A stretch of 64,000 nt of DNA, from sequence record OR844650. The stretch is one strand, 5' to 3'. Under the pieces are notes generated by a model. That model searched no databases and had not been told where the DNA came from. It saw only the letters and a list, made by a program, of their open reading frames with translations. This document shows positions 16,069 to 17,591 of this stretch, piece after piece. Within the stretch, counting starts at the first letter, position 1. The number at the start of each line of letters is the position of its first letter. This stretch comes from Escherichia phage ECO103 4-12-1. A program made the translations under genes and the position numbers.

Positions 16069-16998
16069 TTATACAGCCATAGGTGCTTTAATTGTTGGCA
16101 TTGGGTTGTAATTCACTAATTTAAAAGAATCCATAGTGAAATCTTCAATATTAGTAATTGTAGGATCAAGCCACAATTCAGGTAATTCACGAGGTTTTCG
16201 CTGTAGTTGTTCTTTTACTTGTTCAACGTGGTTTTTATAAATGTGACAATCACCACCATTCCAAATAAATTCACCAACATCTAAACCAGTAATTTGTGCA
16301 ATCATATGAGTTAGTAGTGAGTAACTACTGATATTAAATGGAACTCCTAAAAATAGATCAGCGGAGCGTTGATGCAGAATACAGCTTAGTTTTCCTTGCA
16401 CTACACAAAATTGCACAAAGCTATGACAAGGTGGTAACGTCATATCATCAAGCTCACCAACGTTCCATGCACTTAGAATGTGGCGACGGCCATATGGATC
16501 GGACTTTATACCTTTGATTAGTTCTTGTAATTGGTCAGTTGTACGTTTCATAACAACACCATGTGAACCAGTATAATCGATAACTTTGTATCCTTTATCT
16601 TTTAATTCTTGAATTTCTTCAGTACTGGAACTAAATTTATAATCTTCCCATTCACGCCATTGCTTACCATACACTGGACCTAACTCACCATCAGTATAAC
16701 CAAGAGCAACGCCTTGATTTAGGTAATTATCTGTCCAAATAGTTTTCTTTTCTGTATCACGAGTTCCATGCAAAATTTCACAAAGGCGACGCTCATCATG
16801 GGAACCTTCAATAAACCATAGTAATTCTGAAGTCATTGCTTTCCAAGCTAGACGTTTTGTCGTCACTGCTGGGAAACCATCTTTAAGGTCAAAACGCATT
16901 TGTTGACCGATAAGTTTGATTGTTCCAACACCAGTACGGTCAACGCTTTCTACGCCTTCATCTAGAATTTTTTGATATAGTTCTTGTAGTTGTTTCAT
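16069..16998 (-). CDS. thyA: thymidylate synthase
   Basis: ThyA motifs LPPCH, HQRSADLFLGVPFNISSYSLLTHM. Confidence 0.9.
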   Translation of the reverse strand: MKQLQELYQKILDEGVESVDRTGVGTIKLIGQQMRFDLKDGFPAVTTKRLAWKAMTSELLWFIEGSHDERRLCEILHGTRDTEKKTIWTDNYLNQGVALGYTDGELGPVYGKQWREWEDYKFSSSTEEIQELKDKGYKVIDYTGSHGVVMKRTTDQLQELIKGIKSDPYGRRHILSAWNVGELDDMTLPPCHSFVQFCVVQGKLSCILHQRSADLFLGVPFNISSYSLLTHMIAQITGLDVGEFIWNGGDCHIYKNHVEQVKEQLQRKPRELPELWLDPTITNIEDFTMDSFKLVNYNPMPTIKAPMAV

Positions 16999-17591
16999 TA
17001 TTCTTCCTTGAAAAATGTAATAAAATGTTCCATATGTTTTTCGGTGGCATTGCGTGAACCAATACCAGTCCAGTTACCATGTGGTGCTGGAACGACGAAT
17101 GTTTGTGTGAACTCTTTCAGTACTGTATCGAAATAAAATACTGAACGTGAATTCATATCATAACAATAAATTTCAGGATTTTCAACTGAATCCATATACA
17201 TCTGTACTGCCCATGCAGTACCACCACTTACCTTAGTTGGTGATGTGATATTTGCAATACAATATATTCTTTCTGTATTAAGTATCTGATAACTATTCCT
17301 TGCAAGTAAGTTGTAAACATAAGAACCAGGTTTTGGTACTTTTCGCTGCAACGAGTAACATGCAATGTTTAGTTGATTTAATATAGAAATATCAGATAGA
17401 ATATTGGATGGTATTTCTAATATAGTACTTTCATCTACACTATGCTCATGACCTTTGAATGAAAAATTAATAACTTCAAATCCATTATTTTTTGCATAGA
17501 TAGAAAAAAGGCGGTCAGCACCTGCTGCCCCGCCACTAAAACATACATTAGATAAACCTTTAATTGCTTCATCTAATTCATTCTTTTTCAT
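16998..17591 (-). CDS. SLOG/DprA-like Rossmann-fold protein (putative nucleotide-binding)
   Basis: FSGGAAGADRL and later SGGTAWAV motifs resemble the DprA/LOG (SLOG) superfamily; stop overlaps thyA start (TAATG). Confidence 0.5.
   Translation of the reverse strand: MKKNELDEAIKGLSNVCFSGGAAGADRLFSIYAKNNGFEVINFSFKGHEHSVDESTILEIPSNILSDISILNQLNIACYSLQRKVPKPGSYVYNLLARNSYQILNTERIYCIANITSPTKVSGGTAWAVQMYMDSVENPEIYCYDMNSRSVFYFDTVLKEFTQTFVVPAPHGNWTGIGSRNATEKHMEHFITFFKEE

Follow-up and report, generated by a model that had tools for sequence, protein, structure and literature searches.

A putative SLOG-fold nucleotide-binding protein with a predicted cpYpsA-type circular permutation, encoded next to thyA in an Asteriusvirus jumbo coliphage

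The genome of Escherichia phage ECO103 4-12-1 (sequence record OR844650) carries, immediately ahead of the thymidylate synthase gene thyA, a gene for a 197-amino acid protein, and the question that this locus raises is what the protein does and whether its overlap with thyA is a clue to its function. The stretch analyzed here, hereafter called the window, is 64,000 nucleotides long and comes from the genome of an Asteriusvirus jumbo coliphage, 100% identical over the tested 5.1 kb to Escherichia phage SHEFM2K and 99.5% identical to 121Q. A first reading of the window made from the letters alone (the sequence-only reading) had located the open reading frame (ORF) at nucleotides 16998 to 17591; it is present there, on the minus strand, a detail that reading had left out, and it corresponds to 121Q gp567 and SHEFM2K M2K_0549. 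As judged from its predicted fold, the gene encodes a putative stand-alone nucleotide-binding domain of the SLOG superfamily, referred to below as the SLOG protein. The many homologues in clustered databases show that the ORF is a genuine gene and did not arise by chance: 106 were found in a 90%-clustered database, and a profile search of a 50%-clustered library of 1.84 billion cluster representatives gave 2,665 representatives at E≤1e-3, of which 704 reached E≤1e-30; most of the proteins are stand-alone and have 175 to 210 amino acids. The fold, the superfamily and a label for the protein are already public. RefSeq and several Pharokka-annotated genomes name 121Q gp567 "DprA-like DNA recombination-mediator protein" (PHROG 768), and two GenBank records label the gene "DUF2493 domain-containing".

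The predicted model is a three-layer alpha/beta structure, and its comparison with solved SLOG structures showed that the SLOG/Rossmann-like assignment made in the sequence-only reading was correct. The fold-comparison scores were 7.9 for ShosA, 7.7 for type-II LOG, 7.4 for YpsA, 7.0 to 7.2 for DprA and 6.4 for the Moco carrier protein. Structurally the closest SLOG clade is cpYpsA, and Foldseek concurs on its representative 3imk. The order of the structural elements is characteristic: the SGGAxGAD loop comes after the first strand in the phage protein, as against the second in DprA and YpsA, while the strand-helix unit with the sequence G-I-G-S-R, found at the N-terminus of those two proteins, ends the SLOG protein, the model showing a strand (residues 174-178) and a helix (residues 184-191) at the C-terminus. 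Because the GxR strand-helix unit is C-terminal and the SGGxxGxD loop comes first, the protein as modeled is circularly permuted in the manner of cpYpsA.

The phage family and cpYpsA also have in common the constellation S-G-G-x-x-G-A-D-R, R-(N/T)-x-x-(Q/N), G-G-(T/S) and a C-terminal G-x-R. A cpYpsA profile built from the recovered 3imk sequence was aligned by hhalign to the SLOG family over 101 columns in the register of these motifs, a weak match with an E value of 0.0084. Since the invariant constellation is the same and the alignment keeps its register, the phage SLOG family is most aptly viewed as a sister of cpYpsA that has diverged and is carried by phages. In the hidden Markov model search that the sequence-only reading had suggested as a check, none of the LOG, DprA, cpYpsA or YAcAr models reached its gathering threshold. 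The cpYpsA model PF12694 gave no match at E≤1 for the query or 47 relatives, and one distant member of the family matched it at E 8.5e-4 (19.5 bits, gathering threshold 26.2). The YAcAr/DUF2493 model PF10686 scored 20.2 bits with the query against a gathering threshold of 28.2, over residues 6-44 only, and had sub-threshold matches in 22 of 48 family members. The DprA model PF02481 did not match the query and matched 10 of the 48 members weakly (best E 0.0083), P0219 reaching 26 bits with a gathering threshold of 29.6; the Pfam Lysine_decarbox/LOG model matched neither the query nor family members. NCBIfam and PADLOC gave no match for the protein, and sequence searches against solved structures, done with the protein and with the family profile, gave none either, so that matches to solved structures came from fold comparison only. 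When the family profile was aligned by hhalign to single verified sequences, YvdD (a LOG protein; 1.6%), YpsA and 3imk, the probabilities were 1-2%. In BFVD, a fold search brought up nothing but members of the SLOG family and pieces of giant proteins.

Residue conservation was determined in an alignment of 253 sequences made with the family HMM. Residues G20, D26, R98, T125 and G178 are invariant, and S19, G21, A22, G24, N99, Q102, G123, G124, A128 and R180 are nearly so, R180 being kept in 248 of the sequences; the position of W127 is always aromatic (W in 246, Y in 7) and D134 is variable. These residues cluster in four motifs, all encoded on the minus strand. Motif 1, S19-GGAAGA-D26 (nucleotides 17514 to 17537), is the glycine-rich loop after the first strand, and its counterpart SGGxxGADR is invariant in cpYpsA. 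Motif 2, R98-N99-S-Y-Q102 (nucleotides 17286 to 17300), corresponds to R-T-x-x-N of cpYpsA, and we take it, from the motif register and the known consensus, to be the counterpart of the RNR motif of DprA and of the conserved Arg of LOG. Motif 3, S122-GGTAWAV-Q130 (nucleotides 17202 to 17228), is the second glycine-rich loop and includes G123, G124, T125 and W127. Motif 4, T175-GIGS-R180 (nucleotides 17052 to 17069), is the C-terminal strand with the GxR motif, to which the invariant A-G-P-R at the C-terminus of cpYpsA corresponds. The two glycine-rich blocks singled out in the sequence-only reading are thus found at residues 20-26 (GGAAGAD) and 122-129 (SGGTAWAV), and the two glycine-rich pocket loops of the superfamily, one early and of GGxxGxD type and one later and of GG(T/S) type, are both present. 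Such a pattern of conservation appears typical of a specific pocket, and if the family is catalytic at all, D26 and R98 are the candidate catalytic residues. Counted on the verified YvdD sequence, the position in line with the catalytic Glu of LOG is Q130, and it varies within the family (Gln in 197 sequences, Glu in 17, Ala in 11, Thr in 7, Val and Met in 4 each, among others).

The sequence-only reading had derived a role in nucleotide metabolism from a TAATG overlap between this gene and thyA. The overlap is there: the TAA of the SLOG gene (nucleotides 17000 to 16998) and the ATG of thyA (nucleotides 16998 to 16996) share base 16998, and the minus strand reads ...AAG GAA GAA TAA TG AAA CAA at the junction. 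A Shine-Dalgarno-like sequence for thyA, AAGGAAG (nucleotides 17003 to 17009, minus strand), is located 6 nucleotides upstream of the ATG, within the last codons of the SLOG gene (K195 E196 E197), and because of this location translation of the two genes together is plausible in this phage. On the other hand, the overlap alone is unremarkable, since one-base overlaps of stop and start codons occur routinely in this genome (27182 and 36819 are examples from the annotation table). Its conservation was followed in 79 viral loci, 18 Rak2-like and 61 more distant, in which ORFs were called and searched with seed proteins. The order ATPase, VWA/metallopeptidase, 86-amino acid protein, 218-amino acid protein, SLOG protein and thyA is kept in all 18 Rak2-like loci (49-100% identity). 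Among these the one-base overlap is found only in the 121Q-type (Asteriusvirus) locus; RaK2 has a 2-nucleotide spacer, and in the other 16 loci the interval is 235 to 330 nucleotides long and in most of them holds an ORF of about 100 to 120 amino acids, a finding with which the annotated records of RaK2, Serratia phage BF and a Vibrio phage agree. No thyA was found within 5 kb of the SLOG gene in any of the 61 more distant loci. Coupling to thyA as a conserved trait was therefore rejected, as the overlap is limited to the 121Q-type locus and thyA is missing near distant homologues. The overlap is the product of recent gene packing, apparently through loss of an intervening ORF, and not of an ancient functional coupling.

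A different neighbor recurs among the distant homologues. When these were grouped at 60% identity into 22 clusters, a T4 gp1-like deoxynucleoside monophosphate (dNMP) kinase was the immediately upstream gene on the same strand in eight of them and lay within 5 kb of the SLOG gene in 13. Likewise, when 120 proteins from the flanks of 26 representative loci were assigned to Pfam families, DNMK came up most often, with 12 matches, followed by the tail sheath with 10. The surroundings of the DNMK-SLOG pair differ: it precedes the sheath gene in Atu_ph07, and in several lineages it forms a two-gene unit bracketed by genes of the opposite strand. In Cr30 the SLOG gene follows the gp47/gp46 nuclease genes. 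Recombination genes occur as singletons next to the SLOG gene and DNMK is recurrent; genes of NAD salvage or NAD synthesis lie near two homologues (L003 and Atu_ph07). The phage studied here has its own T4 gp1-like dNMP kinase (nucleotides 33000 to 33626, minus strand; found by annotation and used as a phmmer seed), directly upstream of the tail sheath gene (nucleotides 30242 to 32905, minus strand). The DNMK/sheath junction is the place that the SLOG gene occupies in Atu_ph07-like and many metagenomic phages.

A second recurrent context is the insertion of the SLOG domain into very large proteins. The 3,819-amino acid virion RNA polymerase (vRNAP) of the N4-like Klebsiella phage Pylas (NC_049444.1, nucleotides 34439 to 45898) includes the domain with all its motifs at residues 981-1144, upstream of the RNA polymerase Pfam domains at residues 1599-2355; we found no mention of it in the searchable literature. 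The early region of Pylas (nucleotides 1 to 34438) also encodes a DUF4326 protein, a small "GTP-binding/deoxyribosyltransferase" of DUF2493 type and a Poa1p-like Macro protein, a set that Aravind's group ties to ADP-ribose processing. In the crAss-like phage cr113_1 (NC_055896.1, nucleotides 31391 to 44377) the domain lies near the C-terminus, at residues 4068-4231, of a 4,328-amino acid protein. In frame, this ORF contains 73 TAG codons but neither TAA nor TGA, which points to stop-codon recoding, and RefSeq names the whole giant "DprA-like DNA recombination-mediator protein" after its one 165-amino acid SLOG domain. Other carriers are a 2,942-amino acid protein in which the SLOG domain is followed by a NADAR domain, a 4,050-amino acid polyvalent protein that combines it with an ART-PolyVal ADP-ribosyltransferase and a PIF1/SF1B helicase, and a 368-amino acid fusion to a histidine-phosphatase domain. 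The histidine phosphatase and NADAR superfamilies both include enzymes that act on ribosyl-phosphate-base compounds. The BFVD fold matches confirm the crAss and the helicase-containing giants. In the C-terminal extensions of about 100 amino acids and the N-terminal extensions of longer members, Pfam and PHROG found no partner domain other than His_Phos_1, NADAR, ART-PolyVal, helicase and PHROG 2072/12933, the last being of unknown function. Giant proteins of this kind are injected along with phage DNA (Iyer et al. 2017, PMC5512222), which implies that the SLOG domain can act at the very start of infection.

Three readings of these results fit them about equally well. The one that we place first, as a tentative choice that is still short of an even chance, is that the protein binds a free (deoxy)mononucleotide from the dNMP pool made by the phage, or cleaves it as an N-glycosidase. 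It is favored because DNMK, ThyA and nuclease neighbors recur, all of which make or consume dNMPs, and because the pocket is of the small-ligand type. The pocket would hold a 5'-phosphorylated (deoxy)ribonucleotide, and by analogy with other SLOG proteins the two glycine loops, T125 and R180 could contact the phosphate, D26 the sugar hydroxyl, and W127, Q102 and N99 the base. As its ligand we propose a free dNMP that the phage makes from host DNA and that would feed the dNMP kinase and thymidylate synthase. An unwanted dNMP might be removed by N-glycosidic cleavage through D26 and R98, not through the Arg/Glu pair of LOG, or else be buffered; the dNMP pool would be conditioned in this way, and the host could possibly be denied a nucleotide for an alarm signal. 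In this phage the overlap with thyA would serve co-expression, probably by coupled translation.

Several observations weigh against such a function. The conserved residues are the same as in DprA, which is not an enzyme, so conservation cannot show catalysis, and the catalytic Glu of LOG is not conserved in the family. In the phage studied here DNMK adjoins the sheath gene with no SLOG gene between them, the SLOG gene being 13 kb away beside thyA, and in 10 of the 22 distant clusters DNMK is not nearby. The DNMK-SLOG-sheath adjacency may in part be inherited synteny of large T4-related myoviruses. Finally, the domain is also present inside injected giants of phages that have no annotated DNMK (in Pylas, as checked over the first 34 kb), an occurrence that is hard to reconcile with housekeeping of the dNMP pool.

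It is possible, if rather unlikely, that the protein is instead a DprA-like binder of single-stranded DNA (ssDNA), that is, an accessory ssDNA-binding protein, a recombination mediator or a factor protecting the DNA at entry. This is what the RefSeq/PHROG name implies, jumbo-phage "DprA/Smf" proteins have been proposed to be extra ssDNA-binding proteins (Iyer et al. 2021, PMC7824862), and it agrees with the resemblance of the motifs to those of DprA and with the contexts of helicase, vRNAP and recombination. The protein, however, lacks the SAM and winged-helix/DML1 domains and is circularly permuted with respect to DprA, its recombination neighbors are singletons whereas DNMK recurs, and the DprA Pfam scores stay under the gathering threshold. 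The isoelectric point, 5.75 for the query with a family median of 6.8 and a range of 4.9 to 9.7, is not consistently basic, which is a mild argument against DNA binding.

A counter-defense function is on the same footing, doubtful yet conceivable: the protein would act as a sponge or hydrolase for signals derived from NAD+ or ADP-ribose, of the cyclic ADP-ribose type, that are made by TIR/Thoeris-like systems. Such a role was predicted, in one of two comparative-genomics surveys of viral SLOG domains by Aravind's group, for those of the YpsA clade, which were proposed to bind or cleave ADP-ribose-derived immune signals and are found with Macro and NADAR domains and in sporadic helicase fusions (PMC9503650), and in solved structures the SLOG domains of ThsA and TRPM2 bind ligands of the ADP-ribose type. 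It is also favored by the presence of the domain in virion-delivered giants (the Pylas vRNAP, the cr113_1 protein, the NADAR protein and the ART-PolyVal/helicase protein), by the NAD genes near the L003 and Atu_ph07 homologues, and by the Macro and DUF4326 proteins of the Pylas early region. The sequence-only reading had listed a signal-nucleotide sponge as its less likely alternative; no known defense model matched the protein, and no close structural similarity to the SLOG domain of ThsA was found.

Far less probable is a bolder version in which the family is a safety partner of phage dNMP kinases, destroying or sequestering a particular deoxypurine nucleotide (dAMP, dIMP, dITP, or modified dNMPs, for instance m6dAMP from methylated host DNA), so that the phage kinase would neither feed a Kongming-type alarm nor recycle modified bases into phage DNA, and the copies in giant proteins would bring the same activity at DNA entry. 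The background is that phage dNMP kinases can trigger the dITP-based Kongming immunity, which combines the phage DNK with a host deaminase, and that T5 counters Kongming by means of a dNMP phosphatase, Dmp, that co-occurs with the kinase (bioRxiv 10.1101/2024.12.20.629578). The analogy with a SLOG protein linked to the kinase is speculative; if the bolder version is true, it would be a new anti-defense or pool-sanitizing chemistry for the SLOG fold. The nucleotide nucleosidase favored in the sequence-only reading, if understood as a LOG/PpnN-type 5'-monophosphate nucleosidase with the canonical Arg/Glu mechanism, is very unlikely and this catalysis was rejected, for although the Arg is kept (R98, 253 of 253) the Glu of PGGxGTxxE is replaced by Gln at a position that is free to vary, the family profile gives no match to a verified LOG sequence, and the nearest relative is cpYpsA, not LOG.

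The SLOG gene belongs to a minus-strand block of genes. At its downstream end is thyA (nucleotides 16069 to 16998; Pfam PF00303, E 7.7e-102), encoding a thymidylate synthase of 309 amino acids that exceeds the 266-position Pfam model through an insertion of about 45 residues, roughly at residues 107-160, with the active-site motifs LPPCH and PFN intact. Upstream of the SLOG gene are genes for two proteins of unknown function, one of 218 amino acids (PHROG 15894; nucleotides 17595 to 18251), whose stop lies 3 nucleotides ahead of the SLOG start and which stays together with the SLOG gene in 18 of 18 Rak2-like loci, and one of 86 amino acids (PHROG 13789; nucleotides 18254 to 18514), probably the first gene of a sub-operon. 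A consensus scan placed a sigma-70-like promoter, GGGACA-16-TATAAT with an extended TG, at nucleotides 18534 to 18561, a candidate start for a transcript of the 86-amino acid, 218-amino acid, SLOG and thyA genes, and an intrinsic-terminator-like hairpin with a 13-bp stem and a T run at nucleotides 16037 to 16066, directly behind thyA, where the operon likely ends (both on the minus strand). The VWA gene and the gene for the 86-amino acid protein are separated by a further palindromic hairpin with a 9-bp stem (nucleotides 18575 to 18596). It is scored as a terminator in either orientation, and the promoter-like site (18561 to 18534) comes immediately after it.

The block is headed by a pair resembling N4 gp24/gp25, identified by Pfam and PHROG matches and the notes in the RaK2 record and syntenic in all 18 Rak2-like loci: a MoxR-type AAA ATPase (nucleotides 20108 to 21433, minus strand) and a DUF2201 metallopeptidase and VWA protein (nucleotides 18609 to 20033, minus strand). 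The latter is named "HNH endonuclease" in RefSeq/PHROG; Pfam finds DUF2201_N and DUF2201/VWA in it and no HNH domain. Upstream of the ATPase gene, at nucleotides 21603 to 21630 on the minus strand, is a perfect sigma-70 consensus promoter, TTGACA-16-TATAAT with an extended -10 TG (12/12), one of a cluster of near-perfect sites in a 300-nucleotide gap that also includes 21696 to 21723 and 21846 to 21874 (minus strand). At the level of consensus matches, the sigma-70-like promoters and the strong terminator after thyA suggest transcription of the SLOG block by the host polymerase, as an early-type unit (early or middle) embedded among late structural genes.

The GenBank record of phAPEC6 (MK817115.1, nucleotides 198454 to 199028) has two small ORFs, gp260c and gp261c, in place of the SLOG gene. 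Pseudogenization as an explanation of this split annotation was rejected, as the DNA is identical to the window at 593 of 594 positions and holds an intact 197-amino acid frame, so the split is an annotation error; a consequence of the wrong gene model is that published virion proteomics could not score the SLOG protein properly. The 1,841-amino acid tail-fiber protein of the window (nucleotides 7616 to 13141, plus strand) has an internal duplication of about 165 amino acids near its N-terminus, consisting of two very similar segments 'TGTA.FN...YGITGNGLNKLDYLT', and its translation also contains many shorter repeats 'ITTTAGA.IGG.L.V.G'.

The "DprA-like" proteins of Rak2-type jumbo phages are thus members of a phage family of very large size, with some 2,700 clusters when grouped at 50% identity, for which Pfam has no model. 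In the searchable literature on cpYpsA, YAcAr, DUF2493, viral SLOG domains and DprA-like anti-defense proteins, no experimental characterization of this family was found. What the present analysis adds to the public label is the cpYpsA-type permutation as modeled, the loss of the LOG Glu, the lineage restriction of the thyA overlap, the pairing with the dNMP kinase, and the presence of the domain in injected giants including an N4-like vRNAP. The two recurrent contexts, the gene pair with the dNMP kinase and the insertion into virion-injected giants, lead to testable functions. If the family edits the dNMP pool or neutralizes signals, a widespread component would be added to phage nucleotide metabolism or counter-defense and the cpYpsA clade would have its first function; if it is an accessory ssDNA-binding factor, the finding is an ordinary one. 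As a large and little-studied family it is a reasonable target for biochemistry, with little in it that would strongly surprise specialists.

That phage proteins neutralize nucleotide signals is established by Tad1 and Tad2, and the sensor of Thoeris, ThsA, shows that a SLOG domain can bind a signaling nucleotide (7uxs). The 5'-deoxyribonucleotidase Dmp of T5 is genetically tied to phage dNMP kinases and edits the dNMP pool, which keeps the kinase from feeding an alarm pathway of the host; the likeness is one of functional analogy only, as Dmp has an unrelated fold and is a phosphatase with a Mg-binding Asp (bioRxiv 10.1101/2024.12.20.629578). DprA/Smf (PF02481), the recombination mediator of natural transformation, has three domains (SAM, Rossmann and winged helix) where the phage protein is a single permuted domain of 197 amino acids. 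With LOG/PpnN (PF03641) the protein has in common the SLOG fold, the two glycine-rich loops, the conserved Arg and a neighborhood of mononucleotide type, and it differs in the absent or variable catalytic Glu, the missing match at the sequence level and the strand order changed by the permutation. YAcAr/DUF2493 and YpsA (PF10686 and PF06908), small SLOG proteins that occur in phages, plasmids and Firmicutes, are not permuted in this way, and the sub-threshold match to PF10686 covers the first motif only; a phage example of DUF2493 in another setting is HelB of ICP1, an SF1B helicase with a DUF2493 tail. The closest system is cpYpsA (PF12694), represented by the crystal structure 3imk of Syntrophus aciditrophicus, whose label "putative molybdenum carrier protein" is the name given by the depositors. 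In three independent assemblies of Syntrophus contigs the 3imk gene (nucleotides 5001 to 5474) lies 39 nucleotides downstream of a gene for a DinB-type Y-family polymerase on the same strand; another bacterial cpYpsA locus is beside type VI secretion system genes, and these neighborhoods give no consistent clue. In comparison with cpYpsA, which is chromosomal in bacteria, the SLOG family is phage-borne and about 40 residues longer, with extra helices (residues 62-104) and a beta-hairpin (residues 150-164), while the permutation, as predicted, and the invariant pocket residues are those of cpYpsA.

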